This document shows positions 921 through 49,971 of a DNA stretch of 55,433 bases, piece by piece. The stretch lies in assembly GCA_963575745.1 (NCBI GenBank), contig CAUYUJ010000158.1, positions 62,001 through 117,433 on the forward strand, written 5' to 3'. The position numbers and the translations under genes were made by a program. The notes beneath the pieces were generated by a model. It saw only the letters and a list, made by a program, of their open reading frames with translations. It did not search any database and had not been told where the DNA came from. How positions within the stretch are numbered: the stretch's first letter is position 1; every line of letters starts with the position of its first letter. Source of the stretch: Prorocentrum cordatum (lineage: Eukaryota).

Positions 921-1177
921 CTCGGCATCGTCGTCAAAGATGCCCTCCTCTTCCTCGTCGTCGTCCTCTTCTTTGGAAGGAGAGGCGGCGGAGGAAGGTA
1001 CTGATACTGTGCGATCTGGTCAGGGGCTCGGTGGGATGGCCAGGCTGTTCGCGCGACCGCACAATGCCCACTATGTTACCGACCTCAAGCGATTGTGCAA
1101 TCTGCGACCGCGCGGCCGTCGATCTTTCCAGTGGCCGAGATCATTGATCATGCAGCTGGGAAGTCCAAGATATTGAC

Positions 1178-1501
1178 CCCGACGGCATCGTTGAACTTCT
1201 TAATCAACGCCACGTCGCTGTTCTCATCTGGCTCCTGCATCCAGAAAATAAGTTTCTTATCGCTGGAGGTAAAGCGCAGGACGTAGACACGCCCGTCCTT
1301 GCACTTCTCGATCTTCTCAAAGTAGGCGTCGTTGATCACGATGAGATCAAGGGCCGTGTCGTTCTTCTCGCGGTTGGCCCATCGGAAATGCATCAATCCG
1401 TCCTCCTCGGTGGTGACGAGCGCAACCTTGCCTTTCGACTTTTCTGGCGTGACGAGGCGGCCGTCCCACTTGCACTGGCCCGCCCGGAACTCCACGTGCA
1501 C
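1178..1501 (-). CDS. RPN13: Rpn13/ADRM1 proteasomal ubiquitin receptor, Pru (PH-like) domain exon
   Basis: Translates VHVEFRAGQCKWDGRLVTPEKSKGKVALV...LMHFRWANRE...GRVYVLRFTSSDKKLIFWMQEPD...KKFNDAVG, the typical Pru-domain pattern. AG acceptor at 1503-1502, probable GT donor at 1177-1176; 324 nt, phase 0. Confidence 0.93.
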
Positions 1502-2729
1502 CTGCGTAGACCGAGCCCGCACCCGACTCCTCTGCGTGCGGATATGAGTTCCCGGCGTGGCCAATTGTTCGCACAGGCGAGAGAGTGGAACACGAGGGTT
1601 CGGCGGCCCTCTGGGGCGCCAGATCGGGCCGGTGCTCATGTGGAACGAGGTCCGCCCAAGTATGGACGTCCCCGTGGAAGGAACGATGTGCCACCTCCCT
1701 GCAAACAACCAACGTCTTCGTAGCTTTGTTCGAATCGACGCATCGCTGGAAATCAAACAAGGACTGGGCACCATCCCGAATCTCACCCCGCCCTAACTCT
1801 TGTGCAGTTTTCCCAATCATGGAGCACGTGCCGTTTCCCACGGCGAGAACCTCAGATGATCTTTCAACTCGGAAACTTCAAACATTCCAAACACTGCAAA
1901 GAGGCACCCCTGCGCTAATTGAGCCTCGACGCAGCCACTTCAAATAAACACAAGTTTGTGTGTGTTCAAACAACGAGTGACCGATATAGTAGAGACGAAG
2001 AGATATCACCAACAGTAAGAAGCATCGTGCACGCGCTTCATGTGCGATGCGCGCCACCCTTGCACAAGTCGCTGAGCCACTCGCACCACTTGCACGATAC
2101 GAACTTGCATGACTCGGGTCTCAGGCGGCCGTTTGGGACGACCCTGGCCTTTCCTGGAGGCTTATCAACGAGGTGCAACACATGGAAAACTTCCTGGACC
2201 CGAAAAACTCCAGGCGTCCCAGACCTCTGGCGTCGTCATTTTGCACGCCGCGGACCCCAGGAGCTTTCGACACCATCCCTAGAGACCGGCTTCTTGCCGC
2301 GGCTGGTTTATCGATGGCCCTGGGGCCCGAAAGCAGCCCTCCAAAGGGTCAAAATTCAGGAAAACGCCAGCCGTTGTTGTTTTTGTTGTTTGAAACGGAA
2401 ACGGCCCCAAACTTTTTCCTTTTTGAAAAAAGAAACAGTATTTTCTCAAGTTTGGGCGTCTCGTTTTTCAGCCGCATATCTGGTCTCCAGCGCCCGTTCG
2501 GGACGACTCGCACACCCCCGCACCACTCTCGGCGCGGCGCAGCTGCTGGAGAGAACCCGGGGGCCCTTGAACGGTCAGAAACGTTTCCAAGCACCCGAAA
2601 GCGTGCTATCACTTCTGATTGGCCCTCCTCTTCTTCCTCCTCCTCCTCCTCCTCCTCTAGTGTATTAATCTGTGTTTCTGCATTGATATGTTTGCCAACG
2701 AGGACCTCAAACAATGTATTTCTAGCATA

Positions 2730-9010: not shown

Positions 9011-10505
9011 TTTTCTCAGCCATTTTCCCTCTTCCGACACGCGTCTCTGCCTCCTCCCACTCGGCGCCCCCCCAACCTCAGCAGGAGCTCGCGGCCGCTG
9101 CCGCCCTCCCCCAGCCACTTGCTACAGAGGGCTACGGTGCTAAGCCCGCGAAGAACACCACAAAAAAACACCGAAACGGGTCGTCGAGGCTCGGGGTGAA
9201 CCGCCAAACCAAAGGGTTCCCGGCGCCAGCCCTGTCAGAGCTCACGACCTCCTGCCCTTTCATGTTCACATGGCCTCTTATACCTCTTCCCTTTGCACTT
9301 CGGGGTCGGAGGAGGCGGGGCAAGTGTGTGAGGTTCTCACTACATCGGTAGCGGAGGAGGCAGGGAGTGCACCAAAACCCCCGGCGAGGGCGATGTCCAG
9401 CGCCCGGCCCGCCAACACCGTGCTTTTCACCTTGCCCTACAACGCGGCCAGCATGAAGGGTAGCTTGAGCCACGATTTATGTTTCGGCCAACGACCTCCG
9501 TCCTTCCCAATACCCTCCCCTCCGCCACTCGCTGCGCCCTGCCAGCAACCACAAATCAGGCCTGGAATACCAAGGCCACCAGTCAGAAGCCTTTCGAAGA
9601 AAGCATTGTCCACCCACCGTGCCAGAGCGACCGTGCCATCACATTGCTTAAGCTGGCCCAGGGCGGCCGGAGTGCCGCAGAAGAGTCGTCCAACCCTCCT
9701 CCCGACTTGCCTTCCCTCACTCACCCTGGCCTGCCTTTTCCTGCCTCACCCGTGCCGCTGACCGATAGAGATCGGGAATCGGGGGGGGGGTAGAGGATGG
9801 GGACAAGGAGAAGTCTTCGAAGGCACAGGTTGCCAACTAGCCGCCTGCCGGCGCTTGCCCGCACCTGCCCGCCCGCCCGTCTGCCCGCGTCCCGACCAAC
9901 GGCGTCCCTCCACCGCCGCCCGTGCAACCCAATCTGACAACCACTGCCCGCCGCCACATCTGCTGTCACCTCCCTCCCCTCCCCTTCCACGCTCATAAAG
10001 ATTCCCGCCCTCCCCTCCTCATCCGCTCAAAGAACTGCACATGTGACCGCCCGTGGTACCGGGGCCCCCCAGGGCAAGCGGGACACCAGGGGGGTGGTGG
10101 TGGAGGATGGGCGAAGCTTCGAAGAGGAGGTTGGCACCCCCCCTGGTTCGGAGTGAGCCTGTGGCCTGGCCTCGCTTGTCGAGCGCAGACGGCGCCCATG
10201 GGGGCGGGGCCACTTCTTCGTGCTTCTTTGCGCTTCTCCCCCCCCCCCAGTGGCGATGTCCGCCAGGGGGGGGGGAGGCCGCGTCAGTGTGATTCAGAGG
10301 CCATCAGCAGTAACAGGAGGAGGAGGAGGAGGAGGAGGAGGAGGAGGAGGAGGAGGAGGAGGAGGAGGAGGAGAGAGGAGGAGGAGGAGGATGAGGAGGA
10401 GGAGGAGGAGGAGGAGAGGAGGAGGAGGAGGAGGAGGAGGAGCAGGAGGAGGAGGAGGAGGAGGAGGAACTCTTTGATAACGGACGCTGTCCTGGGAACG
10501 ATTTT

Positions 10506-11308
10506 TTAATTACTGGAGCTACGGTCCCCAGCCCCTTCGGGCTGGGGCTCCTGGGCCCGACCAAGCCAGGAGGGAGCCGCGGGCCTACTCCCCGCTCCCA
10601 TCTGAACCCCTGAATGCCCAGCACCCTGGCCAGGCAGGTCGGCTCCTGGGTCTTGTGATGGCGGACGTCGGAGTTCCGCCTCAGCCACAACACGCAGCTC
10701 GTTTCTGGCCCTTATGGCCTCTCGAATTGCTTTCGGGGGTCCTTCTCTCCGCGGGAACAGGCCTTTGGCCAGCCTCACCAGGTTCTCCGAACCTTTCGGG
10801 GTCCTCCCTCCACATCTGGAAACTAAATTCCTGGGGTCAACGGTCACATTTTGGCCACAGGCCGAGCCACATGCAGAAACCATTTTTCCACATACTGAAT
10901 TATGTGAGAGGGGTGAATCCGCTCGCACACCCTGAGCCCTCGTGTGGCTGGTGCGATCCTGTCGCCTGGAGCGGCCTGGGACCTCCCAACTTCAGCAGGG
11001 GGCCCTGAACACGTCGCGGCCGCAAGCTCCCGAGTTTTGTATCGGGGAAAGACCCTCTCACACACCGTGCACCACCAAGAACATGTGCCGTGACCGCAGG
11101 GCTGCAGTAGGTGGTCAGACGCTGCAGGAACTCTCTCAAGCCTGGACGGTCGCGCCTCCTTCTTCAAAGGGGCACGCTCCGCTCGGGCTTTGTCCTCAGC
11201 CTCAGCTGCACACGCCAGGGTTCGTCTGGCCCTCCGTCTGATCAGCGCGGCTGTAACATCAATTCTGTCAGTGTCAGGAACTCTCCCCACAACCCCCGCC
11301 CACGCCAA
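10506..11308 (-). pseudogene. C-terminal Cys/His-rich region of the retrotransposon ORF2
   Basis: DHLLQ..WWCTVC..ATC and SH..CGSACG..LVSRC..GSENLVRLAKGLFP in frameshifted pieces downstream of RNase H. Confidence 0.6.
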
Positions 11309-11416
11309 CTCCGCCGCCTCCCCCGCCCACGAATCAGCACAGGCGTTGCCAGAGGCATAAAAGAGTTTCTCTCGGGTGTCTAGCTCTGCGAGGGCCTCCT
11401 CCTGGTGAGAAGGGAA

Positions 11417-12021
11417 CTACTGAACATCTAAGTCCTGATTTCTACGGCCCTGGAACGCTTTGCGGGCCCGAGTCCATAAATCTTCATTCGCCCCTGTAAG
11501 GTTTGGTCTGCTAAAACGGGCCCTCCAGGTCCTGGAGATCGTCCTGTGATCCGTTGGAAACGTGAAGGGCAGGTCCGTCTCTACTTGTTCAAGTGCTAGG
11601 CAGAAGGCTAAAACTTCGGCTCGGGAGACTGCTTGAACTTCTCCAATGGGCGGAACCCCGAAGGCCTCCCCCAAGGTCCCCCCCTCCAGAATCTTCGACA
11701 AGCCCGGCGATCGCTGCGCCGCAGCGACGTCTTCTCGGGTCATCTGAAGGCTTGCCCCCGAGCCGTCTCCAAATGTGAACACTCTGCCAGCCTCCGTGCA
11801 TTCGGCGCAGCCGTGAGACTTATATTCAATCAGTGACAGAGCAATGCGAGCCTCGTCGAACTCAGGGGTGGTGAGGCTGACGGACGGGAGGCCCCGCAGC
11901 CACAACCCTGGCGACGCCTCATGCTGAGGCGCTGCCTGGGGCACCAACCTCTCTGTCTTCTCGAAGTCCTCGTGTGGCCCGTCTTCTTTTCGCATTCCCA
12001 TATTCGATGGTATAACGATTC
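11417..12021 (-). pseudogene. Zinc-finger remainder plus RNase H domain of the retrotransposon
   Basis: ESLYHRIWEC, then after a frameshift FTFGDGSG, QAVSRAEVLAF, FPTDH and ANEDLW (RNase HI D-E-D motifs). Confidence 0.85.
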
Positions 12022-12279
12022 TTTTTCCCGGAAAGGGCTTAAGCCCAGGGTTCTCTTTTAGTTTGTAAACTTAGTCCCCCGGTGCCTGCTTGAAGGAGGC
12101 CGGCGAATTTTTTCCCTGATAAATAACGAGGTCGAAGGAGGCCGGCGAATTTTTCCCTGATAAATAACGAGCCCGAGAATTAAAATTGAGGATGTCTCGA
12201 GCGAAACGCTTGTTTTTGAGGCCGGCGAATTAAAATTTGAGGATGTCTCGAGCGAAACGCTTGTTTTTGAAATCCCGAC

Positions 12280-13067
12280 CTCACCACACCCCAGCACGCA
12301 CGACCACGCCCCAGCACAACCACCCCCCAGCACGACCACCCCCCCAGCACGACCACACCCCAGCACGACCACCCCCCAGCACGACCACACCCCAGCACGA
12401 CCACTCCCTAGCACGACCACACCCCAGCACGACCCCACCCCAGCACGACCCCACCCTAGCACGACCACACCCCAGCACGACCACACCCCAGCACGACCAC
12501 ACCCCAGCACGACCCCACCCAGCACGACCCCACCCCAGCACGACCACACCCCAGCACGACCACACCCCAGCAGGACCCCACCCCAGCACGACCCCACCCC
12601 AGCACGGCCCCACCCCAGCAAGACCACACCCCAGCACGACCACACCCCAGCACGACCTCACCACAGCACGACCACTCCCCAGCACGACCCCACCCCAGCA
12701 CGACCACGCCCCAGCACGACCACACCCCAGCACGATCACACCCCAGAACGACCACACCCCAGCACGACCCCACCCAAGCACGACCCCACCCCAGCACGAT
12801 CACACCTCAGCACGACCACACCCCAGCAGGACCCCACCCCAGCACGACCCCACCCCAGCACGGCCCCACCCCAGCAAGACCACACCCCAGCACGACCACA
12901 CTCCAGCACGACCTCACCACAGCACGACCACTCCCCAGCACGATCACGCCCCAGCACGACCACGCCCCAGCACGACCACTCCCCAGCACGACCACCTCCC
13001 AGCACGACCCCCCCCCCAGCACGACCACCCCCCCAGCACGACCACCCCCCCAGCACGACCACCTCCC
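12280..13067. repeat. 16-bp satellite (CCACACCCCAGCACGA)n; further arrays at 14371-14700, 26320-27245, 28050-29010 and 29452-29806
   Basis: Direct inspection; it generates the spurious PARPHPSTTTPQHD / GVVVLGCGRA ORFs. Confidence 0.97.
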
Positions 13068-13419
13068 AAAACTCGCGCTGGCTCCCTTCCCGTGTCGTGA
13101 AAACGTGTCCACGCATGCGGTTCTATATCCTCCTCCTCCTCCTCCTCCAACTTCCGTTGTTCGAGTGGCTCTCCGCGCCCGCGGGCGGGGCCGCGCGTCG
13201 CTTGCCTCCCAGGGTCAGCCGGGGGACTCCCCCGCGGGCGCGCGCTTGCCCGCGGACGGGCCGCGTCGCGCGTGTACCCTTAGGGTCAGCCGCGCGGCCT
13301 CTGGGCCGTTTGGCGATTGCACCCCCAGGGTCATGCCGGCCGCGGCCGCGTTGGTGTGCATGGCGGAGTACGCAGAGTTCGCCATCAGTTGGCTGGCGCT
13401 CTGCGGCGCCCTGGCGCTC

Positions 13420-14370
13420 ATGGCGCCGAAGAGGCCGGGCGGCAAGGGGCAGGGCAAGGGGCCCAAGAAGGGCAAAGTGGGCGACGTCTCCGCCGCTCCC
13501 CCTGCGGACGGTCGCGCCGAGGTAGACGCCTCCGCGTCCAGCGGCGCCGAGGTAGACGCCTCCGCGTCCAGCGGGATGCCGCCTCCTCCGCTGGGGACGC
13601 CCGACTTCGATGGTGGGCGCGGCGTGGTCAGGAGGCCGTACAATTGCGACTTCTGCGACGCAAGCTTCCCCGTCTCCTCGTTCTTGGTGCCGTGTGACGG
13701 CCAGGGCAACGTGCCCCAAGGTTCGGCCCGCGTCGCCAGGGGCATGCAGACCATCGCGGACATGTGTGGCGAGAAGCAGGAGTTCAAGAATACCATCGAC
13801 ATCGACGAGGACAAGCCCGATTTGCGCCACATGTGCTTCTCGTGTCTCGGCGTGCGCACCGAGGGCGACTCCGAGTACTATGTCAAGGAGAGGGACGGCG
13901 ACAAGGTGCGCTTGCATGCTTCGTTTGGGAACGTGCGGAAGAGGTACTTCGGGCGCGACTCGAGGTCCGAGGCCGACGTGTTGCAGCACTTGGCGGCGAA
14001 GGCGTTCGACCGAATGCCGTCCGACGTGACCTGGGACGAGGTCTACCACAAGGTGTGCGTCCAGAGCGAGGTGGCCGCTGCTGGGGATTTCCACGTCGTG
14101 CTGGGCGGCGGCGTGCTGCTCATGTACAGCTGCCCCAAATGCTTCTTCCTCCCGGTGAACCCGAAATTCTGGCTCCGGTGCGTGAAGTCCCAGCATCGGC
14201 ACGAGCCGGGTAAAGACGCCGAGGGAGGACACTGGCGCTGCCCGTTCGAGGGTTGCCTGGAGAAGTGGACGTGGGGAGCTGCCGGGAAGTTGCGGGTCAT
14301 CCTCATCCCGGAGGTCGAGGGGAGCGGCCTGCAGAAGATGGTCATTGGAGCGACGTCCGAGAGCACCGAA
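13420..14370 (+). CDS. Unknown Cys-rich protein fragment with four CxxC-type pairs, 3'-truncated by satellite
   Basis: Uninterrupted, GC3-rich ORF starting MAPKRPGGKG, with CDFC, CFSC, CPKC and CPFEGC; no introns or stops over about 317 codons. Confidence 0.65.
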
Positions 14371-14947
14371 GCACGACCACACCCCAGCACGACCACACCC
14401 CAGCACGACCACACCCCAGCACGACCACACCCCAGCACGACCCCACCCCAGCACGACCCCACCCCAGCACGACCCCACCCTAGCAAGACCACACCCCAGC
14501 ACGACCACACCCCAGCACGACCTCACCACAGCACGACCACACCCCAGCACGACCACGCCCCAGCACGACCACGCCCCAGCACGACCACGCCCCAGCACAA
14601 CCACCCCCCAGCACGACCACCCCCCAGCACGACCACCCCCAGCACGACCACCCCCCAGCACGACCACACCCCAGCACGACCACTCCCCAGCACGACCACA
14701 CCGCCTTGGTTGAGTGGTTGCCTGTCGTCGTGGAATGTTTCGTGGGGTGTCTCGTGGAATGTTTCGCGGGGTGTCTCCTGGAATGTTTCGTGAGGTGTCT
14801 CGCGGAATGTTTCGTGAGGTGTCTCGTGGGATGTTTCGTGAGGTGTCTCGTGGGATGTTTCGTGAGGTGTTGCCCCGTTGGGTATCGTGAAAACGTGCCC
14901 ATGCTCCACATGTCTATATCCCTTTCCGGGTTCGTGGGTCCATCATG

Positions 14948-16955
14948 TTTTGACTAAGCATCTCGGGCAAAGCTTGGACTGGACAAAGTAACCCTCACGT
15001 TGTCTCCTCGTTCTTGTCCATTGCCCGCCCGTGGTGACGATGAGGTTGGGCGCAGCCAAATCGGAAGCTCCTTCATCGTGAAAGCGTTTCTGCTCTCTGC
15101 GGACGCGCCAAACATCTGCTGCTGGGACCAGGTCTTGTCCATCTTCGTGCTTGGGCGCCTGCTGCCAATACAATTTGCGCATATCACTGGCAACATCGCC
15201 CAGGATCGCGAGCCTCTCCCAGTCCTGCGTGTAATCTGAGTCCGTGCCGCTCGGTATGGCCCATGCCTGCAATTGGCCTTCTGGTAGCGGTCTGTCCCAC
15301 TCCGTCGACTGGATGGGGTTCCAGCCAATGTCCATGAGCGTGGCCTGAAGCGTGGCGATGGGACCTTTGACATCTGCCCATCGTCGCCGTCCTGCATGGA
15401 TCAACTTCTGCCTGATCTTGGACCAGGCCAACTTCACTCTCGCGTGCATCTGTGGGTTCTGCTGCCATAACGCAAGCCACTCTGAAGCTGCTCTCTTCCG
15501 AATCTCCAGGCCTGGCCCCTTGTCCCACATCTCTCTGGAGAGGGTCGTCGTAAGGCACTTGCCGCCTTGAGATCCTGCTGCCGTCTGACCCGCTTGGCGT
15601 CTAAGTCGTAGAAGCTCTGAGGGTGCTAGGCCAAAGGCCTGGTGGCCGTAGCTGGCCTGGGGCAAGGCGCCCGTGGACCAGAGACCTTTAGCTTCTCTTG
15701 CCAATGCCGTGCTTATCCTGAGCCTCTTGGTCTTGCCAAATCGTTTCTTTGCCGTCCTGATTCTTTTCTTCAGCGTGCGGACAACTCTCTTCCGTCCAGC
15801 TCCTGTGTCGAGGCCAAGGTCCTTACTGTGCGCCACACCTCTTGCTGGGGTGCCACACCGCCTCAGTTTCTTGGCTACCGCCTTGACCATGTCCCTGGAA
15901 CTTCCCGCGATGACCGTTCTGTCAGAGATCTTGGGCCGCTGCTGCTTTAAACCGTTGGCCAGCCCAATCGCCAGCCTAGCCACCTTATCTGGGGTGTCGT
16001 ACTCCGTGCCCTCCTCCCTGGCCACTGTGTCGTCGACGAATGCCCACAATCCCGCCGACGGTGAGGGAATGCATGCACGTTGGAGCACTGGATGAAGGAA
16101 TACCTTCGTGAGGCTGGCTCCTCTTGGCGATCCTGCTACTATGGGGCGGGCCACCCAGATCGCCTCACTGATCGCCGCCTTGTCCTTGAGGAGCCGAGGC
16201 GCCGCGAACGTGAGGACCTCCATCCCGACCACCGCCGCAGGGTAGCCCACATCTCTCGCAATCCTCATGGGCAGCACCAGGCTTGCACTGTCGCAGAACT
16301 TCTCGATGTTCTCTAGCAGCGTCAGGCTGGTGATGCCGGGCGCGTACCCTGCCTCGTCCAAGCATGCTCGAAATAGTCCTACTCGCAACGCCGAGCTTCC
16401 TTTGTGCGCCGTGTCCCAATGCGCGCTGAGCGCCTCGCTCCATTCACTGCAGGGGGGCGCTCGAGCTCGACTCCATATCCTTACTGGCAAGGGTAGCATG
16501 CCGAGAACGCGTTCTCCACTTGCTGGTTTGGGAACGACGGTCCCCATAATTGCCGTCCACTGCCTAGGCCACGTGCCTGCCCCCTCGCACATGTTGATGA
16601 GGTTCACCAGCTTCTGCCTAGCACCGAGGGGGGGCCACTTGATATCGTGCAACTTAAGCCCGTCCTCACCTTCAGCTTTGTTGGGGTTCGTCGCCGCCGC
16701 CGCCGCGTCGAACTCCTCAATCGTGATCGGGTCCAGGTCTTCAGCGCGTGCTTGTCTATGTGTGATGATGCGCTCTGCCGCAATGTCGTCTCTGCTGTCA
16801 ACCGCGTCTGTCCAGATCTTGTGCCACCTTTGCTTCTTCGTGTGCGTGGGGATGTCTGGATCCGCCGAGCTGGCGCCGTTGTGGAACTGCTCGAGGACTG
16901 GCTTGACTGGCTCCTTGACATGTCTGTGCAGGATGCCTGGCGGCTGGTTCCACAA
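14948..16955 (-). pseudogene. Non-LTR reverse transcriptase domain
   Basis: KAEGEDG, VPKPASGERVLGMLP..RIWSRAR, LLENIEKFCDS (degenerate DxxKxYD), IVAGS, AFVDDT (catalytic), KDLGLD; ends in CPRC at the insertion junction. Confidence 0.93.
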
Positions 16956-17625
16956 CTGCTAGGCCCACTTAGTGAACTGCTGCCGCTGGTTGGTGATGCC
17001 TATCGTCACTGCTTTGGCCAAGTGGTCCTTGCTTTCATGTTTGAGCGTGGCCAACTCCTCTATGGTGTGCGCTTTCACCTCCTGCGCCTTCAGCATTCTC
17101 TCGTCGGCCTCTTGTGGTCGAACTTCTTGCCAAGGATCTGGTCTAGCCACATTCGCCTTAGCTGCTGGTATGTCGTCGACCAATCTCTGGCACATTTCTG
17201 CTGCTGGGCCCTATTTGTCTCCTTGATCCTCAAGGCCTCATACCTGGTGATGAGCGTCCCCGTGATAGACGATAGTTCCGCCGCCTGGTACTTCGCGTGC
17301 GTGCGTCCTGGTGTCGCTTTAGACCTTCTCCATCGCACCGCAAGTCCGCCTCCTCTGCAACGATGAGCGTCCGCCTCGTGCGCCTCCATCCTGTCAACAC
17401 CGATGATCGCCTCCACTAACGCAGTGACCCAGACCGCATACTTGTCTGAGATCGCCTGCTCCATCAGCTTCTGATGTTCACCGCGGATGAGCAGGTGCGG
17501 CTCTAACTCGTGCGTCTGCTGCGTGAGGTTGGGGGCCACCGCCTTGGTGAGCGCCTCCTGCCACTGGTGCTGGTCGATCGCGTACTGCACCTGCTGCTGC
17601 TTGGTCTGCGTGGGCATCGGCTCCA

Positions 17626-18150
17626 TCACGTTGAGCTCCTCCTGGAGGTGCTCTGGTCGTGCCGCCCTTCGTTTCCGTCGTGCTGCCTCTTTCTTCTTGC
17701 TGCGCTTGCTGTCGGGTCTACTTCTTTCTTCGGCGGTAGCACCAAGGGGAGCGGTCGGGGCTGGTCGAGGTGCCTATGCCACCAGGCATCCGCCCTCCCT
17801 GGGAGCATGCGCAGGGGCCCCGTATGCGTCCTCCAGGGTACCTTCGCCTCCGCCTCGATGGTGATGCCATCCGCTATGTCCTCCCGTGCCATCGCGAAGT
17901 CGATGAGCCTGCCTTTCCCTTTGGCACTTGTGACCTGCACGTTCGGTGTGATGACGCGGCCTCCAAGTCTCTTCGGGAGCCCTGATTTGCTGACCGCAGC
18001 CGGTGAGAGATTCCAATTTGCCATGATATTCCATGGATCTCTAATGCTGCGAACCACCGTGGGGAGAGCCTTCATCTTCTCGAAGTTGCTGCCTTGCATA
18101 CCCTCCTTGGGAAGGAGGTAGAGGGGGAAGAGTACGATGTTGCCTTAGCG
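17626..18150 (-). pseudogene. APE-type endonuclease, C-terminal half
   Basis: PWNIMANWN (degenerate GDxN), RLIDFAM and VPWRTH (SDH-equivalent) in correct order; the N-terminal half appears deleted. Confidence 0.75.
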
Positions 18151-18820
18151 AAGGTGGAGGTGCATGGCCGCAAATCCTCTAAAAGGATCTCTCGTGCCCT
18201 GGTTGTTCATCGTCTCCCTCATCTCATCGTATGTGGTAGTCGCCAGCGCGTTGTCCTCCTGATGCTGCTGCGATATGCCATCCGCAAGCGACTGCGTGTT
18301 GTACTCCTCCAGGGCCTTCGAATGCTCCTGCTGCGCCTCGAACACCTCAGCCGCTGCCTGCTCCATCTGCTCTTGTAACTTGGCCACTGCATTCTCAACG
18401 TCCACGTGGCGCTTGGCGATCGACTCGAGCTTGGACTTGGCCGTGTTGACCTTGCCGATCTCCTGCTTGAGCAGTGCCGGCTTGGGTACTTCCTTCTGCT
18501 TCGGAGCGCACTTCTGGGAGATCACCGACTGGGGGCCCTCGAGCTGGGCCTGCATGTTCTGATCGGGGCCGAGCTTCGCCAGCGCGGCGGCCAGCTGCTT
18601 GCGCACCACTTCCGCGTTGGTGCCCTTGGTCTTGTTGGCCCATGGAGGACCTGAAGGAACGTCTGCTGTGCCATTGTTGCCATTGTCGGCCCAGGGCGTG
18701 ACGACCGAGTCACACTTCGCGCGGCGTCCTCCATTGCGTTTGATCTTCCAGTCATACGCCCAGTTGTTGCAGCTCCCGCGACGCGACCATGCCCATTTCT
18801 TTGACAGCGGCGCCACGGCA
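18145..18820 (-). pseudogene. Retroelement ORF1-like protein (Trp/Cys N-terminal motif plus coiled coil)
   Basis: APLSKKWAWSRRGSCNNWAYDWKI...AKCD followed by heptad-rich LKQEIGKVNTAKSKLESIAKRHVDVENAVAKLQEQMEQ; sits between the SL and the endonuclease. Confidence 0.65.
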
Positions 18821-18947
18821 CTCGAAGAGTGGCTGCAGCCGTGGACGGGAACGGGCTGTCGCTCCTCCAGGAGCGCACAAACAAACTCTCTTGTTGTCTG
18901 GCCGCGGTCACAACGGTATCCACGTACTCCTCTTTGGAACAACGCAT

Positions 18948-18969
18948 CTTGAGCCCAAATGGCTACGGA
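18948..18969 (-). other. DinoSL spliced-leader copy at the 5' end of the retrotransposon
   Basis: TCCGTAGCCATTTGGGCTCAAG vs the canonical DCCGTAGCCATTTTGGCTCAAG: 21/22. Confidence 0.95.
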
Positions 18970-20094
18970 GGAGGAGGAGAAGGAGGAGGAGGAGGAAGAT
19001 GAGGAGGAGCATATGAATATTGTTTCCTGTTTCCTAGTGCAGGCCGCCCTGGCAATGCCACGAGACGAGAAGCTTAGACTCAGAGGAGTTTCGTCAGGCA
19101 CGAGACGACTCGACGCCCCGCCGACCACACCCCGCACAGCCATGGTTCACCCGTTGGGGCCCCGCTGACCAGTCGCCAACAGGGGGCTGCACAACTGGGC
19201 TAGTTCACCTGTAATGTTTTTTCTGCCGTTTGCTCAAAGAGCTGCAAGGCCATTAAGGCGAACCTGCTGACGGGCACGCGCAAACGGGGTCCCACAAGAA
19301 GCACGAAGCTTTCAAGCTGGGGGTCGCCGCCCGGGAGTACACCCGAAGGTCCCATTGGGCTGACGTGCCACATAGCACCGCCGCACCGCGGAAATGCGCG
19401 ATCTGCATGCAGCTGTCGCTGCAGCAGAAGGCCATGGTTTGAGGAGGAGGAGGAAGAGGATGAGGATGAGGAGGATGAAGGGGCGGAGGGGGAGGAGGAG
19501 GAGGAAGAGGAGGAGGAGGAGGAGGAGGAGGAAGAGGGTACTAATAAGGAGGAGGATGGTAAGGAGGAGGAGGAGGAGGAAGAGGAGGAGGAGGAGGATG
19601 GTAATGAGGAGGTGGAGGAGGGTAAGGAGGATGATGGAAGGAAGTGGTAAGAGGATGCGGAGGAGCAGAGGGGGGAACACCAGGATTAGGATCATGATGA
19701 AAAGGGGAAGGATGAGGAGGGTGGGGATGAGGGAGGAGGGAGGACGAGAAGGATGAAGAGAGGGGGTCGGTGGAGGCGGAAGGGGATGAGGAGGCGGATG
19801 AAGAACGGATGGAAGGCAGGTCGATGGGGAGGAGGAGGAGGAGAACGCACATGAGGATGATAATGCTGACTGGGGCAACGAAGACGTGTGCGAGGAGGGA
19901 GAGGAAGCGGAGTCGGGGAATGATAACGGTGAGTGAAAGGTGATGTATATATAATGTATATATGTGTGTATGTGTATATATATATATCCACGCATACAGA
20001 TGTATATATGATTGGGCGAATCTGCATATACACACATCTGTTAATACAATGCACACGTACGTATACGCACATCGATACACACACCTGTATCTGT

Positions 20095-20135
<41 letters not shown>

Positions 20136-20418
20136 TCGACAGAGAGAAAGCGAGCGATACTGCACGTGGGAGAGAGCGGACTCCATACATACATATATCG
20201 GCAGTGGATACACGTATTTATCTATACACCGATGTACATATACATGCTTATATGTATCGTGCACAGGCACAGCTATGTATAAATACATGCACACAACCAA
20301 GCATGCGCATCTCCATACTATATGTGTATCATTCACATACACGTGTATACATATATACATACATCTATGTATATACATATGGATATGTATATACATACAT
20401 AGAGAGATAGAGCGATAT

Positions 20419-20491
<73 letters not shown>

Positions 20492-22872
20492 CAAACAAGG
20501 ATGAGAGAGAGACTAGGCATAGGTCGAGGGAGAGGGGGATGCGGAGGCGGAGTAGGAGGACGAGGAGGATAAGGAGGCGTTAAGACGTAGACGGCTTGGG
20601 TGATTGCGTGTAGCACTTTTCAGCACACCTTTTGGAGGATGGGGTGGACAGCGGAGCGGCCAACACCTCGTCGACGCATCACGGTGGGACAATCATGAGA
20701 CTCTGATCCAAACTCTAAAAGCATGCAGCCGAACACGTGCGGCACAAAAGAAATTGGCAAAGCCCGTCGTGCGTCCACGAAGGAGGATGGCGAGGACGGG
20801 CAACGGAATCTCCTGAATGCGCTTACCTTTGCGAATACCATGGAAGTGTGGCCTTTCTCGTAACTCGCCTGCCTGTCCCGTCAACGGTCACCGCCAGCAC
20901 AGGGGTGGTGAAGAGTAATGTGCAGCATATGCGGCGGATTGGGAGGAGGACGAGGATGGGGAAGAGGAGGCCGAGAAAGGGGGAGGAAGGCCAACGTAAA
21001 CCCTGGACGCATCAAAGATGCTTCAATACAGCCTCCCATCCCGAGCTACCGTTCCAAATATCCATACAACCGTTCCTGTCACTACGGGAAGCGCCCTCTC
21101 GAACGACGAGCGCATTGCACTAGTGGCTCGCCATGCAGGGAGGAGCCCAACTTCCTTCGATTTAGCCCCAAGTAGTGCCGAGAACAAGCCTCCTAAATCT
21201 TAAGAGCCGTCCGAACAGAGCCACTGTTTGACAGAAAGGACCGGCCTCCTCTAATGTGGCTGCTGCAAAATTTTACCTTCATGGCTGTACCCATTATAGA
21301 AGCCGTCAACGGAAATCCGATTTGAGACGGAGCCGCTCTCCATCCGTGTAGCTGTTTCGCAACATCGAATTTCAGGGGGCAGGATCTGAGCAAGTCTCAA
21401 AAGAGACATTCATCTGAAAAGGAGCCACTGTCCGTCCGCGAAACTTCCTCGGAAACGCTTGGGACGAGTGCGTGCGGCGCGCAATCGAGGGCCACACCCT
21501 GACAACGGCCCGCTCACCATCCGTGCAGCAGCTGATGAATAGTAAGATGCATGTTCGTGGCGTGCAAGCGAGACCCGCATGGTGAAACGAACGCTTCCCT
21601 CCAATCGTGTAAGCGTGAGAGATGGCGGGGAAAACTCAAACGAAACATCGGGTCCGCCCTGTCCACACGCCTGGTGGTACGACGTGGAGTGCTTGATAAG
21701 GAACGATGATGGGGGAGTTGGAGGAGGGAGTGATGGGAGAATGGCGAATAATAAATGAAGGGGGACAGGGGAGAGGTAGGGAAGTAGGCTGGGGAGGAGG
21801 ACGAGTAGGTGTAGGACGGGGAGTAGGCGCAGGAGCGGGCTGGAGGAGGTGCTGGAGGAAGAGGAGAGAGAAGGATCGACCCTACGGCCTGCGGCAAAAC
21901 ATCAAACAGGAGCAGCAGCACTGGCAGCGGCAGCACCAGCAGCATCGGCAGCGGCAGCAGGCGCTCCACCACCACCAGCGCGAGCATGGCCACCGCGGCG
22001 CCGCCCCCGCAGGCAGCCAGCGCCTCCCGGGCGGCTCTCGACCGCGGCCGCCTCGAAAGGGCTCCCCCGCGCGGGCTCGGGCCACCCTGCCGGCGCTGGC
22101 GCCCTGGAGGCGAAGCCCCTCAGCTCTTGCAGCGCGGCCTGGCGCACCGCCAGGTTCTGTGACGTGCTGCGCTCCACGGCGCGGGGTATCGACACCTGCA
22201 GAAGGGGGGCCTGCAGCCCTTCCGCAGGTAGGTCACCTTGCCTCGCCTGTCCACGCACAGGTATGTCACGCCGCGCTGCGGGATCCCCGCGCCATCCTCC
22301 TCGACGTGCCATGTAAAGCCGCACAAGGACCCCCTTCAGAGATATAAGTCACCACGCGCCAAGTGCCCCCGGGCAGCATCAACGACAGAAGCGGCGCCTG
22401 CAACGCGGCGTGCCCACGGTGAGACTCTGGGTGCCAGAGGTCCTCGTACTCGCAGTCGGGCGCGAAATGCTCCGACCACCACGTGGCGCTGTGCTTCTAG
22501 GGCCCTCCGTCTGTTATCCGCAGTTGCTGTGCAGTGTCTTGGGCGCTGGCTGGTCGCCGTGGATCGTCGCTGGCACCGTCTGCAACAGCCAGTGCATAGG
22601 CCGCGCTCTGCTGCCGCGCGAGCACGGCCGTCGGGGGGACCTCGAAGAGCAGCGGCGGCGGCGGCGCTGCGGGTGCGGTGGAGGCCGAAGCTGTAAGGCT
22701 GGAGGCTCCCTGGTGTGAGGTGGCCCCACCTGCCGCGCTCGCGGAAGGCAAACTGCCCCGTCCCCCAGGACTGCGACGCGGCGCCCCCGCCGGCCTGCCC
22801 AGCGGGCGGCGCGCACAGCTCGCTGCTGCTGCTGGCCTGGCGACCAGAGCTCAGGCTGTCGACAGGCGCCTG

Positions 22873-23844: not shown

Positions 23845-23863
23845 CTTGAGCCACAGTGGTTCC
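23845..23863 (-). other. Degenerate DinoSL relic upstream of a possible minus-strand gene
   Basis: GGAACCACTGTGGCTCAAG vs GTAGCCATTTTGGCTCAAG: 15/19, followed by a second TGGCTC-like motif and ATGs within about 45 nt. Confidence 0.55.
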
Positions 23864-25462: not shown

Positions 25463-25607
25463 TGGAATGTTTCGTGAGGTGTCTCGTGGGCTGTTTCGTG
25501 AGGTGTCTCGTGGGATGTTTCGTGAGGTGTTGCCCAGTTGGGTATCATGAAAACGTGTACATGCTCCACATGTCTATATCCCTTTCCGGGTTCGTGGGTC
25601 CATCATG
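25463..25607 (+). mobile_element. 3' end of another copy of the Helentron-like element
   Basis: 24-bp gtgtctcgtggaatgtttcgtgag-type repeats, then tatatccctttccgggttcgtgggtccatcatg followed by TT. Confidence 0.8.
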
Positions 25608-25833
25608 TTGAAGGCTGCCTTGGGCCGTCTGGGAGCCTTTTCAGAAGCAATGTCAAAACTATGTAAGGACAACAGTTTTGAAGTCGATGCTGGTGTATGT
25701 TTTCACTTTTTGAGGATGTCCCTAGCGAAATCGCTATTTTCGGAAGTCCCCCAATCGTTCTGACAGCCATCTTGACGTGCTTTTTGGCATCTCATTTCGT
25801 CATCCTGAGGTACTTCGAGAACGAGTGCTTTTT

Positions 25834-28800
25834 CCCGGAAAGGGCTCAGGCCCAGGGTTCTCTTTTAGTAGGTAAACCTGTCCCCCGGTGCCAACTTGAG
25901 GGAGGCCGGCGAATTTTTTTCCCGGAAAGGGCATGGGCCCAGGGTTCTCTTTTAGTAGGTAAACCTGTCCCCCGGTGCCAACTTGAGGGAGGCCGGCGAA
26001 TTTTTTCCCTGATAAATAACGAGGTCGAAGGAGTCCGGCGAATTAAAATTTGAGGATGTCTCGAGCGAAACGCTTGTTTTTCAGAATTTCTTGAGGATGT
26101 CTCGAGCGAAACGCTGGTTTTGCAGAGTTGAGGATGTCTCGAGCGAAACGCTTGTTTTCAGAATTTGCTGAGGATGTCTCAAGCGAAACGATGGTTTTGC
26201 AGAGCCGACCGCGACGCGGAAAAGCGCCCCGCGCGAAGGAATTTCGATGATGTCTCGACTAATTCGTTTGTTTTTGTACGATTTCCTGGAATTTTGGCAG
26301 GATGTCTCGAGCGAAATGCACGACCCCACCGCACGACCACGCCCCAGCACGACCACACCCCAGCACGACCAGACCCCAGCACGACCCCACCCCAGCACGA
26401 CCCCACCCCAGCACGACCACACCCCAGCACGACCACACCCCAGCACGACCCGACCCCAGCACGACCCTACCCCAGCAAGACCACACACCAGCACGACCAC
26501 ACCCCAGCACGACCTCACCACAGCACGACCACGCCCCAGCACGACCACGCCCCAGCACGACCACGCCCCAGCACGACCACGCCCCAGCACGACCACACCC
26601 CAGCACGACCACCCCCCCAGCACGACCACCCCCCAGCACGACCACCCCCCAGCACGACCACACACCAGCACGACCACTCCCCAGCACGACCATCCCCCAG
26701 CACGGCCACACCCCAGCAGACACACCCCAGCACGACCGATCGATAAATCAACAGGGTGCGGACACCCCAGCACGAACCCACCCCCAGCACGACCCCCACC
26801 CCAGCACGACCCACCCCAGCACGACCACGCCCCAGCATGACACACCCCAGCACGACCACACCCCAGCACGACCACTCCCCAGCACGACCCCTCCCCAGCA
26901 CGACCCCACCCTAGCACGACCACACCCCAGCACGACCACACCCCAGCACGACCCCACCCCAGCACGATCACACCCCAGCACGACCCCACCCCAGCAATAC
27001 CACACCCCAGCACGACCGCACCCCAGCACGACCTTACCACAGCACGACCACACCCCAGCACGACCACGCCCCAGCACGACCACGCCCCAGCACGACCACG
27101 CCCCAGCAAGACCACGCCCCAGCACGACCACGCCCCAGCACGACCACCCCCCAGCACGACCACCCCCCCAGCACGACCACCCCCCAGCACGACCACCCCC
27201 CAGCACGACCACACCCCAGCACGACCACTCCCCAGCACGACCACACCGCCTTGGTTGAGTGGTTGCCTGTCGTCGTGGAATGTTTCGTGGGGGGTCTCGT
27301 GGAATGTTTCGCGGGGTGTCTCGTGAAATGTTTCGTGAGGTGTCTCGTGGAATGTTTCGTGAGGTGTCTCGTGGGCTGTTTAGTGAGGTGTCTCGTGGGA
27401 TGTTTCGTGAGGTGTTGCCCAGTTGGGTATCATGAAAACGTGTCCATGCTCCACATGTCTATATCCCTTTCCGGGTTCGTGGGTCCATCATGTCCCTGAT
27501 AAATAACGAGGTCGAAGGAGGCCGGCGAATTAAAATTTGAGGATGTCTCGAGCGAAACGCTTGTTCCCGGAAAGGGCATGGGCCCAGGGTTCTCTTTTTC
27601 CCGGAAAGGGCATGGGCCCAGGGTTCTCTTAGTGGTTAAACCTGTCCCCGCGTGTTGGGTGCCACAGTGTGGCCCCCGGAGGGTGGTGCTGGAATGGGGC
27701 CAATTGAAGGAAGGCAGGCGAAATGTTTTCACCGACTGGATAAATAACGAGGTCGAAGGAGGCCGGCGAATTAAAATTTGAGGATGTCTCGAGCGAAACG
27801 CGTGTTTTTGAAATCCCGATCGATAAATCACAGGGTGCGGGCCACTTTTTCGTGTGTTGAGGATGTCTCGAGCGAAACGCTTGCTCCGCAGAGTTTGCCG
27901 AGGATGTCTCGAGCGAAACGCTTGTTTTGCAGAGCCGACCGCGACGCGGAAAAGCGCCCCGCGCGAAGGAATTTCGATGATGTTTCGACTAATTTGTTTG
28001 TTTTTGCACGATTTCCTGGAATTTTGGCAGGATGTCTCGAGCGAAATGCACGACCCCACCCTAGCACGACCATACCCAGCACGACCACACCCCAGCACGA
28101 CCAGACCCCAGCACGACCCCACCCCAGCACGACCCCACCCCAGCACGACCATACCCCAGCACGACCACACCCCAGCACGACCCGACCCCAGCACGACCCT
28201 ACCCCAGCAAGACCACCCCCCAGCACGACCACACCCCAGCACGACCTCACCACAGCACGACCACACCCCAGCACGACCACGCCCCAGCACGACCACGCCC
28301 CAGCACGACCACCCCCCAGCACGGCCACCCCATCAGCACGACCACCCCCCAGCACGACAACCCCCCAGCACGACCACACCCCAGCACGACCACACCCCAG
28401 CACGACCACTCCTCAGCACGACCACACCCCAGCACGACCACACCACAGCACGACCACACCCAGCACGACCACACCCCAGCACGACCACACCCAGACGACC
28501 CGATCGATAAACACAGGGTGCGGAGCACCCAGCACGAACCCACCCAGCACGAACCCACCCAGCACGACCCCACCCCAGCACGACCACGCCCCAGCTATGA
28601 CCACACCCCAGCACGACCAACCACCAGCACGACCACTCCCCAGCACGACCACACCCAGCACGACCCCACCCTAGCACGACCACACCCAGCACGACCACAC
28701 CCCAGCACGACCCCACCCAGCACAGGCACACCCAGCACGACCCCACGCAGCACAAGGGACCCACCCCAGCACGGACCGCACCCCGCGCACCACTACCACG

Positions 28801-30042
28801 CACGACCACACCCCAGGCACGACACGCACCAGCACCACGACCACGGCCCCCAGCACGACCACGCCCCAGCACGACCACGCCCCAGCACGACCACGCCCCA
28901 GCACAACCACCCCCCACCACGACCACCCCCCCAGCACGACCACACCCCAGCACGACCACCCCCCAGCACGACCACACCCCAGCACGACCACTCCCCAGCA
29001 CGACCACACCGCCTTGGTTGAGTGGTTGCCTGTCGTCGTGGAATGTTGCGTGGGGTGTCTCGTGGAATGTTTCGCGGGGTGTCTAGGAAATGTTTAGCTG
29101 AGGTGTCTCGTGGAATGTTCGTGAGGTGTTACTCGCTTTGTGTTTCGTGAGGGTGTCTCGTGGGGATGTTCGTGAGGTGTTTGCCCCAGTGGGTATATGA
29201 AAAACGTGTTCCATGCTCCACAGTCTATATCCCTTTCCGGGTTCGTGGTCCATCATGTTTCCCGGAAAGGGCATAAGCCCAGGGTTCTCTTTTAGATGGT
29301 TTACCCCCGGATCTGCTGGGAAGAGGGCCGGCGGATTTCTTTACCTGATTAAATATCGAGGTCGAAGGAGGCCGGCGGATTAATATTTGAGGATGTCTCA
29401 GGCGAAACGCTTGTTTTTGAAATCCCGATCGATAAATCACAGGGTGCGGGCCACCCCAGCACGACCGCACCCCAGCACGACCACACCCCAGCACGACCCC
29501 ACCCCAGCACGACCCCACCCCAGCACGACCAAACCCCAGCACGACCACACCCCAGCATTACCCCACCCCAGCACGACCCCACCACAGCAAGACCATCACC
29601 CAGCACGACCACACCCCAGCACGACCTCACCACAGCACGACCACACCCCAGCACGACCACGCCCTGGCACGACCACGCCCTAGCACGACCACGCCCCAGC
29701 ACGACCACCCCGCAGCACGACTACCCCCCCAGCACGACCACCCCCCAGCACGACCACCCCCCAGCACGACCACCCCCCAGCACGACCACTCCCCAGCACG
29801 ACCACACCGCCTTGGTTGAGTGGTTGCCTGTCGTCGTGGAATGTTTCGTGAGGTGTCTCGTGGACTGTTTCGCGGAGTGTCTCGTGGAATGTTTCCAGGA
29901 AGACGTTGAAAACGGTCGCCTGTGTCTCGTGGAATGTTTCGCGGGGTGTCTCGTGGAAGTGCCCGTCGCCCAATACGGTGTCGTGAAAGCGTTTCCATGC
30001 ATGCGGTTCTATATCCCTTTCCGGGTTCGTGGGTCCATCATG
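25834..30042 (+). mobile_element. Head-to-tail array of three copies of the Helentron-like element
   Basis: Unit ends (..TCCATCATG) at 27492, 29257 and 30042; starts CCCGGAAAGGG at 25834 and 29261; junction CATCATG-TTT-CCCGGAAAGG at 29251-29270. Confidence 0.8.
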
Positions 30043-30044
30043 TT

Positions 30045-46069: not shown

Positions 46070-47999
46070 AAGCGGGGGGGGAGGCTGGGAGGGGGCGGAC
46101 CGAGGAGGAGGCGGAGGAGGAGGCGGAGGAGGAGGAGGAGGGAGGAGGAGGAGGAGAGGAGGAGGGAGGAGGAGGAGGAGAGGAGAGGAGAAGAGAGGAG
46201 GAGGAGAGGAGGAGGAGGAGGTAGGAGTTGGAGGAGGAGGAGGAGGAGAGGAGGGAGGAGATGAGGAGGAGGAGGAGGAGGAGGAGGAGGAGGGAGGAGG
46301 AGGAGGAGGAGGTGGAGGAGGAGGAGGAGGATGAGGAGGAGGAGTGGAGGAGGGGAGGATGAGGAGGAGGTGGGGAGGAGGTGGATGAGGAGGAGGACTG
46401 CGCGGAGGAGGTGGGAGGAAGGTGGAGGGTGGAGCCCGAGTCCTGCGCGGGCTGTGCGGACTGCAAGCGTGGTGCGAGGGCTGCCGCACGCCCCCCGCGC
46501 GGCGGAGCGCGGGCTGCCCGCGCGAGCGGCCCCGTTCCGCCGCGGCTGGCGAGCAGCGGGGCAGTCCGCGGCGCGGGCGCGCCCGGCGGGGGCCCGCGGG
46601 CGGCGCGGCGGGCGGCACGGCGGGCGGCGGCGCGGGTGCGGCGGGCTCCGCGGCCGCGCTCCGCCTGGCCGGGCGGGCCCCGCGAGGGTTTTGGAGGCAC
46701 CTCCCCAGACCCCGTCTCTTCCTCCCCCTCCTCCTCCTTGCCTCCTCATCCTCCTCCTCCTCCTCCTCCTCCCCTCGTCCTCGTTCTCCTCCTCTCCTCT
46801 CCTCCTCCTCCTCCTCTCCTCCTCCGCCTTCTCCTCCTACCCCTCCTCCGCCTCCTCCTCCTCCTCCTTCTCCTCCTCCTTCTCCTCCCTGTATTGCCTT
46901 TTTTAGCAGGCGCATAGGCTGTGAACGCTTGAAGGCCGACATTCCCAACCGCGCCGGACGGCGTATGGCAAGTGCAATGCAGTGCAGCGTCCAGACCCCC
47001 TCGGGCTATGAAAAAATCACGACGGGAGGTTTTTTGTTATTTTCGGCCTCTGGGGGTCCTCACCAGGCCTCGGGGCCATAACAAAAAACGGCTCGGGATG
47101 AGAAACCAGCCCCAGGGAAGGAGTCGAGACCTCTGGGGAACGGCGTTTTGGAAAAATCATGACGTCGGGGGTCTGGGTCCTGAGAAGTCTTCGCCAGAAC
47201 GACTTGAAAACTATTCAGCCCGATGGGGGGGCCACTGAGCCGGATCAGGCCGGATTGGGTCCGGGATTCAGTTCAGCAGGATTCAGCTGGATGAAGCGGG
47301 AATGAGACAGATTAGGCTTGTATCCGACCAGGGACATACCAGAGCCTGAGATCCCAGACCCCACCCCCAACGTCATGCAAAGATCACGACGGACGGGTTT
47401 TGCTAGTAGTCGGCCTCGAGGCCCTCGCCGGGCCCTTGGACCGACACACGACGACTCAGGTTAAAAAGCCGGTCCCGGGGAAAGGGTCCAGACCTTTGGG
47501 GGTCGGCGTTATGGCTCCTCCTCCCTCTCTCCCTCTCGCCCTCCCCTCTCTCTCTCCCTCCCTCCCCCTCCCCATCCTCCTCCTGCTCCTCCTCCTCCTC
47601 CTCCTCCCAAAAAAACATGACTCCAGGGGTCTGGGATCTGGGCGCCTCCAAACAAACTCTTTCGCGCCGGGTGCCTTCAGAAAATTTCGGGCCCCGTGGC
47701 CCTCAAAGACCGATCGGGCTCGAGAGATGCCGCGGGAAGATGGGATCTACCCGGAGGTCCGACGTGCTGTTTTTTTTTCACGTCCCGACCCTTTCCCTGG
47801 GACTGGCTTTTCATCCCGAGTCGTCTTGTGACAATCCTGGGGCCCTGCGAGGGCCCCCAGAAGCCGAAAACGGCGAGAAACCTCCGTATGGAGCTTGGCA
47901 GTCCGCTGGACCTCCGGGGAGGGCTCTGGCCCTCCGAACTTTCTCGCGGTGTGCTGCGCTCTTTCTGCGGCGTCGCATCTCCGGGGCCTGGGGCCTCGG

Positions 48000-49280: not shown

Positions 49281-49971
49281 TCATAATGGACCGAAAGACG
49301 GCTTGGCTGCTGCGCCATTCTCTGTCTCTAGAGGCCTTCCAACTGGGGTCGGAGGATCGCGCCGCATCGCCGAAGCATCAATGACGTCGGCGATGCATCG
49401 GCGACGTCGACGTTGATAACGTCGGGCTCCACATCGAGCCGCATCGCCGATGCGGCGCAATCCTTCGACACTTTTACTCCGAACCCATTTGGGAGGCCTG
49501 GGCGATGGTGGTGGTGCTGGCGGTGGTGGTGGATACTGGTCCTGATGGTGGTGGGGGTCAGTGCCAAATCTGCCCTCGACCATCGCGGCCCGAGGAGGGA
49601 CACTTTCGAGCGTCGGGCCTCCGAATTTCTGGGGCCCCAGCTCGGCCCCTGCTGATCGTTTCTGAATGAGCTGGTGGGGATTTTTTGTCGCAGCCGCAGG
49701 CGAAGGCGCCAGCGGCGAGTCGAGCCGGCTCGGGCGTGGGGCTACCAGGCTGTAGGCCCAGGGTTTGCTGTTCCCTGCGCCAGATCAGGTTTCCAGTTTC
49801 CACTGTTACAATATTGCTTTATGCTGCTTACTGATCCTTGTTGTAAACCGCGCGAGGGGGGGGGGAGCCGAAAACCAGCAAACCTAGCGTCTCCTGGGAG
49901 GGTTCTCAGAATTTCTGGGGGGGGGGGGCGTGGGACACGTTATATATAGTATATATACTATATATATATGA

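Follow-up and report, generated by a model that had tools for sequence, protein, structure and literature searches.

How does a copy of an RNA leader come to stand in genomic DNA at the very head of a retrotransposon? The question is raised by a long interspersed nuclear element (LINE) of the dinoflagellate Prorocentrum cordatum, which lies in a 55,433-base stretch of contig CAUYUJ010000158.1 (assembly GCA_963575745.1, positions 62,001 to 117,433), hereafter called the window and used for all coordinates below. The first bases of this element are a relic of the dinoflagellate spliced leader (DinoSL), a sequence that is known to be added to RNA by trans-splicing (PMC5585692, PMC7245778). We consider it probable, and hold this with good confidence, that the present copy was reverse-transcribed, to the very 5' end, from a LINE RNA headed by the spliced leader.

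The leader and the two ends of the element

The element spans 8,501 bases, from 18969 down to 10469, and a (TCC)n microsatellite abuts both ends in the element's sense orientation. The limits 10469 and 18969 had been given by an initial annotation made from the letters of the window, and they turned out to be the exact ends of an element on the minus strand. Its terminal features, from 5' to 3' on that strand, are the following (UTR, untranslated region):

18970..19009, minus strand: upstream (TCC)n of about 14 units, abutting the leader (Tandem Repeats Finder: period 3, 14.3 copies, 87% matches at 18967-19009)
18948..18969, minus strand: DinoSL relic TCCGTAGCCATTTGGGCTCAAG, first bases of the element, 21/22 match
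18817..18947, minus strand: 5' UTR of 131 bases, from the leader to the start-codon position of the family, set by alignment with the related proteins P0177, P0178 and P0182
10469..10505, minus strand: 3' UTR of 37 bases without poly(A), between the TAA stop and (TCC)51
10315..10468, minus strand: downstream (TCC)51, longest (TCC)n run of the window, tail or target of the element

The relic at 18969..18948 differs from the leader DCCGTAGCCATTTTGGCTCAAG by one mismatch (TTTT>TTTG) and is the sole DinoSL match in the window with up to 3 mismatches allowed; none of 100 dinucleotide shuffles of the window contained any match. These figures, together with the (TCC)n abutting upstream, bear out the earlier placement of a 21/22 leader exactly at the 5' boundary of the element. 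A single leader is present there, with no second relict. Its first three letters, TCC, are also the repeat unit, which leaves the 5' edge open to a shift of up to 3 bases, and the junction looks like a microhomology join. The upstream (TCC)n is a candidate target site and polypyrimidine tract.

Directly 3' of the relic the bases read ATGCG, not GT. The ATG adjoining the leader opens a frame of 146 amino acids that is different from the frame of the LINE family, and its presence there is probably fortuitous. The lack of a GT splice donor also bears on whether the sequence could be a leader-RNA (spliced-leader donor) gene rather than a relic, a reading for which nothing speaks beyond the 21/22 match itself. 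It is contradicted by the sequence at this very point; moreover, the leader occurs as a single copy outside any tandem array and has no Rfam match, all matches at 9500-20500 being miRNA models on simple repeats that score below the gathering threshold. We give a donor gene practically no credence.

Because the leader is joined directly to the 5' UTR of the element, without the intron of the leader RNA, this junction argues for reverse transcription of a trans-spliced LINE RNA. In turn, the (TCC)n brackets exactly the unit that runs from the leader to the 3' UTR, and this speaks for the leader as the start of the inserted cDNA. The initial annotation had taken a genomic copy of the leader as the record of a mature transcript being reverse-transcribed, and for this copy the claim is supported, with a leader joined to the UTR without GT, the start position 131 bases further on and one microsatellite at both ends.

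The same arrangement has to be weighed against mere proximity, in which an older leader relic, left by a decayed retrogene, would lie by chance beside an inserted LINE. Leader relics are described as common in dinoflagellate genomes in the available text of PMC5585692, and the window may hold a second, decayed one at 23859..23845. Chance neighbours, however, do not fit well with a microsatellite that abuts the leader on one side and the 3' end of the LINE on the other, nor with a family start codon that follows only 131 bases past the leader with no other coding sequence between, and we regard them as very improbable. The possible second relic, CCACTGTGGCTCAAG (23859..23845, minus strand), agrees with the relict form of the leader (15 bases) except for 2 mismatches and shares its strand with the LINE and the host genes; it may be a decayed relic or a chance match, 1 of 100 shuffles having given two or more matches.

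At the 3' end, no poly(A) remnant was found: the 37-base UTR runs straight into (TCC)51, a run of 154 bases that starts directly after the last base of the element at 10469. Long terminal repeats are likewise absent: self-BLAST showed none, and the repeat families at 9800-19700 are satellites and microsatellites only. Beyond the repeats, the flanks show no similarity to each other or to the element. A tandem LINE, with the upstream flank as the 3' end of another copy, was ruled out by this lack of similarity. Over the whole window, perfect (TCC)n stretches with 5 or more units in the orientation of the element occupy 1,311 of the 55,433 bases. Such runs are strand-biased, with 47 (1,311 bases) on the minus strand versus 12 (381 bases) on the plus strand, and both recognisable host genes lie on the richer strand. 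A perfect 9-bp hairpin of the minus strand, CCCCAGCCC-GAAG-GGGCTGGGG (10547..10526), stands some 60 bases short of the 3' end and is a candidate 3' recognition stem; the last 172 bases of the element fold with z=-2.19, and 7 of 200 shuffles fold equally well or better.

A single-ORF LINE behind the leader

The nature of the element became visible through its relatives. Pfam assigned no family at E<=0.01 to any of 9 open reading frames (ORFs) of the window and nothing relevant at E<=10 to any of 7; phmmer with the reverse transcriptase (RT) ORF against PDB gave nothing relevant, and a word-indexed protein search with the same ORF gave no match. By contrast with these searches, a HMMER search with the 671-residue frame 16958..14946 among 1.84 billion proteins retrieved 2,979 relatives at E<=1e-3, 163 of them at E<=1e-30. 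Twelve of these were scanned with Pfam (RNase_H in 6, RVT_1 in 6, Exo_endo_phos in 5, no match in 2), and the long ones carry all three domains. A profile of the LINE family matched human LINE-1 ORF2p (E=2.3e-5) and the RNase H of murine leukaemia virus (E=1e-4) in PDB. Domains were then placed on the window by tblastn with the relatives, in collinear order, as follows (APE, apurinic/apyrimidinic endonuclease):

18814..18816, minus strand: GTG at the ATG start position of the relatives (VAPLSKKW here, MGPPSKKW or MAPPSKKW there)
18706..18801, minus strand: decayed Cys-rich finger, CxxC-x17-CxxC in the relatives (WAWSICKSCNNWAYDWKIKRNGGYCAKCDS), with 2 of the 4 Cys lost here
18271..18522, minus strand: coiled-coil-like segment of the N-terminal domain, in frame with the APE
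17656..18246, minus strand: APE endonuclease remnant, C-terminal two thirds (tblastn, E down to 5e-24; Exo_endo_phos in relatives)
14958..16997, minus strand: reverse transcriptase with FVDD motif (671-residue open frame 16958..14946; RVT_1 in relatives)
14949..14969, minus strand: first half of the CCHC finger, CPRCLVK (tblastn)
12024..14947, no strand: nested insertion of about 2,924 bases, not LINE, with 16-base satellite arrays and a plus-strand ORF, entered at an AAAA run
11992..12023, minus strand: second half of the CCHC finger, ESLYHRIWEC (tblastn)
11303..11965, minus strand: RNase H (tblastn; core aligned by the hidden Markov model at about 11647..11435)
10506..10991, minus strand: C-terminal part of the ORF, its frame shifted once more, ending with TAA at 10508..10506 (weak collinear matches)

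A hidden Markov model built from the Pfam RNase_H segments of six relatives found a single match among 816 ORFs of the window, at 11420-12070 on the minus strand (E=1.7e-8). The C-terminal matches, to 8 relatives, are weak (10907..10749, E 0.009-0.71) and collinear. With 150 relatives as queries, tblastn gave no match outside the element at E<1e-3, and neither self-BLAST nor tblastn detected a second LINE copy within the window.

Gene models of Prorocentrum cordatum itself are the nearest relatives, and three of them match the translation of 18945..18310 at 66-70% identity. P0177 and P0178 begin with MGPPSKKWAWSICKSCNNWAYDWKIKRNGG, followed in a single frame by a coiled coil and a complete APE. 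The leader frame of the window is open from the leader into the ORF; its residues 52-233 correspond to residues 1-178 of P0177 (66% identity), a second alignment covers residues 409-496 of that protein (69% identity), and P0178, P0179, P0181 and P0182 show the same N-terminal relation to the window. Since the region after the leader aligns with the N-terminus of P0177, which continues into the APE, we assign it, on this alignment, to the LINE. Pfam found no family in the N-terminal region of the window, P0177 or P0178. By these alignments the LINE family has one long ORF: what had been called ORF1 is its N-terminal part, a Cys-rich finger and a coiled coil that share a frame with the APE, and the domains follow in the order Cys-rich finger, coiled coil, APE, RT, CCHC finger and RNase H. 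In the succession ORF1, APE, RT, zinc finger and RNase H first proposed, the order of the domains was right, although visible only via the relatives, whereas the separate ORF1 has to be given up, this part being in the same frame as the APE. The element is a Prorocentrum-type, single-ORF, APE-class LINE, complete at both ends.

A chimeric retrocopy is another conceivable origin of the leader. In such a copy, the RT would have switched template to a leader-capped host mRNA, or a host segment would have been transduced at the 5' end, and the leader with part of the 131 bases would be host mRNA. Template-switch chimeras are known for human L1 (U6/L1), and the 131 bases after the leader match no relative examined. 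The frame running open from the leader into the ORF speaks against a chimera, however, and had the RT switched onto the leader RNA itself, the intron of that RNA would be expected in the copy, yet it is missing, no GT following the leader. We hold this origin to be improbable.

Two observations concern the relatives themselves. In P0182 (1,327 amino acids), a pepsin-like protease exon is fused directly to the start of the LINE family (…RHHVCAMAPPSKKW…), and the gene sets of the relatives' organism therefore contain LINE-host chimeric models. The distant full-length relatives P0034, P0053, P0028 and P0105, with their clusters (1,545-1,729 amino acids), form sets of proteins that are 97.9-99.9% identical and lie on separate contigs of 5.3-6.5 kb, about one element long. 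Such near-identity suggests that the families are young and active, or that the contigs are full-length transcripts from marine samples.

The copy in the window is dead. Its start codon has decayed from ATG to GTG (18816..18814, 131 bases 3' of the leader), an in-frame stop interrupts the APE at 18147..18145 and a further one the RNase H between 11420 and 11416, and at least three frame changes separate APE, linker, RT and C-terminus. Just upstream of the APE remnant, 8 residues stand in place of residues 179-408 of P0177 (230 residues, with the N-terminal motifs of the APE and the second coiled coil), a loss of about 222. In addition, the 2.9-kb insertion splits the CCHC finger, which reads CPRCLVKK|ESLYHRIWEC across it (family consensus LCPRCGxxxETxxHxxWxC), with the LINE frame continuous. 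The restored length, 8,501 - 2,924 + ~666 = ~6.2 kb, may be compared with the 5.2-6.8 kb contigs on which most full-length relatives are found. The insertion itself carries GCACGACCACACCCCA satellite arrays on both sides of a plus-strand ORF without Pfam family, and CCCGGAAAGGG and CCCTTTCCGGG near its two ends, with related sequence at 25464-30044. In one DNA sequencing run (X3), its end regions reach a summed depth of about 20,000. In one contig, 14947 is followed by 12023, so that the junction is head-to-tail or circular.

Other copies and the copying of a leader-capped RNA

The same run served to look for other copies of the LINE, close copies being defined as at least 80% alike. Pieces identical to the window occur at a depth of 3-6 over the element, together with diverged pieces, and the summed depth is 17-40 inside the element versus 1.4-3.3 in the flanks. 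Searches in contig collections returned no further copy: 104 pattern matches of the RT ORF in metagenome contigs, none confirmed as a copy; no match of P0034 in viral contigs; and 0 matches in metagenome, viral and genome contigs when the finger peptide CNNWAYDWK was sought by a degenerate pattern.

Several points weigh against a leader-capped template as the origin of this copy and as the rule for its family. The junction between leader and element was read in one copy only. The summed depth falls from 17.7 at 18308-18674 to 2.56 at 18675-19041, the flank level (about single-copy); the close copies seem to be mostly 5'-truncated and silent on the leader, and the 131-base UTR is at most a candidate for family sequence. 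A restricted protein search with the translation of leader and UTR found no protein on record that reaches into this part, and peptides derived from the leader (AILAQ, SHFGS, FWLK etc.) are not found in any relevant form near the N-termini of 176 relatives. Finally, (TCC)n is common on the minus strand (47 runs vs 12), so that some of the flanking could be chance, and both ends lie inside (TCC)n, so that a target-site duplication cannot be delimited.

The single junction and the thinning out of close copies before the 5' end also leave room for the present copy being a one-off by-product. The family would then normally be transcribed, unspliced, from a promoter of its own, a rare read-through RNA that happened to be trans-spliced would have given this copy, and the leader would be uninformative on the life cycle. 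There is precedent in the L1Tc/ingi LINEs of trypanosomatids, hosts that trans-splice, which use the internal promoter Pr77 and produce unspliced transcripts according to the available parts of two papers (PMC1874656, PMC8190864). On the other side, the accessible text of Song et al. (2017, PMC5585692) reports 'RNA-dependent DNA replication' as enriched among genes with upstream DinoSL relicts. We judge a by-product rather unlikely, although of the alternatives raised here it is the one that we take most seriously. The copy itself shows a leader-capped template and not a dependence of the family on the leader.

For a LINE RNA that carried the leader, we propose the following route. The transcript would be trans-spliced like a host mRNA and so receive a capped leader. 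At a (GGA)n/(TCC)n site, target-primed reverse transcription would then copy this capped RNA as far as its extreme 5' end; priming was probably helped by pairing of a (UCC)n RNA tail with the nicked (GGA)n strand, and TCC microhomology would be used at the 5' junction. Pairing between tail and target would account for both the fixed orientation and the missing poly(A). Afterwards, the copy lost its start codon, about 222 residues of the APE and its reading frame, and gained the 2.9-kb insertion.

We lean slightly towards the view that, in dinoflagellate LINEs of this kind, the RNA that is translated and copied normally bears the capped leader. It is a more tentative suggestion, and one we doubt more than we believe, that the LINE family lacks its own promoter and depends on read-through plus trans-splicing. 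As to co-orientation with host genes, two such genes are recognisable in the window:

1151-1792, minus strand: host gene with Rpn13 Pru domain (Pfam)
47750-49327, minus strand: host gene encoding a KH protein (Pfam)

Both (2 of 2) lie on the strand of the element; 14 other ORFs of the window were scanned without a Pfam family being found.

Leader-tagged DNA in other systems and the life of dinoflagellate LINEs

The element combines features of leader-tagged retrocopies with those of RNase H-bearing LINEs of the APE type, both of them already known. As to the former, DinoSL-relict retrogenes, or 'recycled' processed cDNAs, were reportedly described by Slamovits and Keeling in 2008. Here as there, a retrocopy free of introns opens with the leader in genomic form, the mark of a reverse-transcribed trans-spliced RNA. 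Unlike in those retrogenes, the copied RNA is the retrotransposon's own, encoding RT and endonuclease, and not that of a host gene, and the copy lacks a poly(A) remnant and lies within a (TCC)n repeat. Insertion into simple repeats is itself familiar from the microsatellite-targeting animal LINEs Kibi, Koshi, Dong, Waldo and Mino, with which our element shares one orientation and the repeat at both ends; the animal elements, in contrast, are not known to carry a spliced leader, and the target of ours is known from one copy.

The idea of DinoSL-relict retrogenes is set out in the available portions of Song et al. (2017, PMC5585692) and PMC12014239. The former calls the mediator of retroposition unknown, and in the parts of PMC5585692, PMC12014239 and PMC3942190 at our disposal the enzyme behind leader-tagged dinoflagellate retrogenes is stated as unknown. 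As regards LINEs, those of Symbiodinium are described as lacking poly(A) and as having target-site duplications and conserved 5' UTRs in the accessible text of de Mendoza et al. (2018, PMC5890265). They include SymbioLINE-Dnmt and resemble our element in their Exo_endo_phos - RVT_1 - RNase_H protein, the lack of poly(A) and the dinoflagellate host, whereas SymbioLINE-Dnmt differs by a DNA methyltransferase ORF1 in place of the Cys-rich finger and coiled coil fused to the APE; 'spliced leader' and 'DinoSL' have 0 occurrences in the available text. The trypanosomatid L1Tc/ingi elements are like ours in being LINEs of a trans-splicing host, but their template, as far as the excerpts of PMC1874656 and PMC8190864 go, is unspliced and starts at the internal promoter, while the one copied here was leader-capped.

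In the literature found, so far as its text was available, no statement was met that a LINE or retrotransposon begins with DinoSL; supplements were outside this scope, and the gene lists of Song et al. may hold cases. Specifically, a LINE beginning with DinoSL is not stated in the available portions of PMC12014239, PMC5585692, PMC7245778, PMC5890265, PMC3942190 and PMC10235124, nor in those of PMC11453091, PMC8045281, PMC10666404, PMC3229502 and PMC9911081.

DNA copies of the leader also came to light in viral contigs. The exact 21-base DinoSL occurs in IMG/VR viral contigs at 119 loci (1.13 Mb in all; L001-L119), with 134 distinct sites. These contigs are AT-rich (median GC 0.20) and mostly belong to giant-virus bins. 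An A stands just before the leader at 126 of 132 sites, and the AT-rich upstream sequence contains the recurrent AAATTTTA, CTAAACCA and AATTTTTA. Downstream, the median distance to the first ATG is 47 bases, and an ORF of 100 amino acids or more is opened at 98 of 119 sites; DUF4116 repeat proteins, CCCH fingers and an ABC ATPase are among the products. The picture is that of viruses whose DNA seems to carry the host leader in front of many genes; among the titles and abstract beginnings found in the literature, nothing dealt with giant virus, spliced leader and dinoflagellate together. One contig of 5,319 bases (L067) starts, on its minus strand, with DinoSL and encodes a viral RdRP_1 protein (E=4.5e-7), and it is like the leader-carrying dinoflagellate RNA virus genome described in the accessible part of PMC10235124. 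A tblastn search of the 119 loci with 150 LINE proteins gave 0 matches at 1e-5, 3 weak ones at 1e-3 and no LINE of the superfamily; because these loci are not dinoflagellate nuclear DNA, this lack is irrelevant to the LINE question.

That a LINE mRNA should be trans-spliced in a dinoflagellate might be half expected by a specialist. The leader on a LINE's own copy would mean, in addition, that LINE machinery copies leader-capped RNA to the very 5' end in these cells. The initial annotation had put such an element forward as a candidate source of the RT activity behind leader-bearing retrogenes, and as a speculation that we consider less likely than not, the proposal can be widened to dinoflagellate LINEs as a class. 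They may obtain a capped, translatable template through the spliced-leader trans-splicing of the host; each oriented insertion into (TCC)n may place a polypyrimidine tract before the AGs of the element's own leader relic, a ready acceptor, so that copies within transcribed blocks could fire again without a promoter; and the same machinery, tail and target may yield the leader-tagged retrogenes. Because LINE machinery is here tied explicitly to the leader tag and comes with a (TCC)n signature, the origin of the retrogenes is open to a direct test: if leader-tagged retrogenes share the (TCC)n target or tail, the missing poly(A) and the same orientation, LINE machinery would have made them. If the wider proposal is true, these elements would lead a retrotransposon life without a promoter of their own, unlike the trypanosomatid LINEs with their internal promoter.

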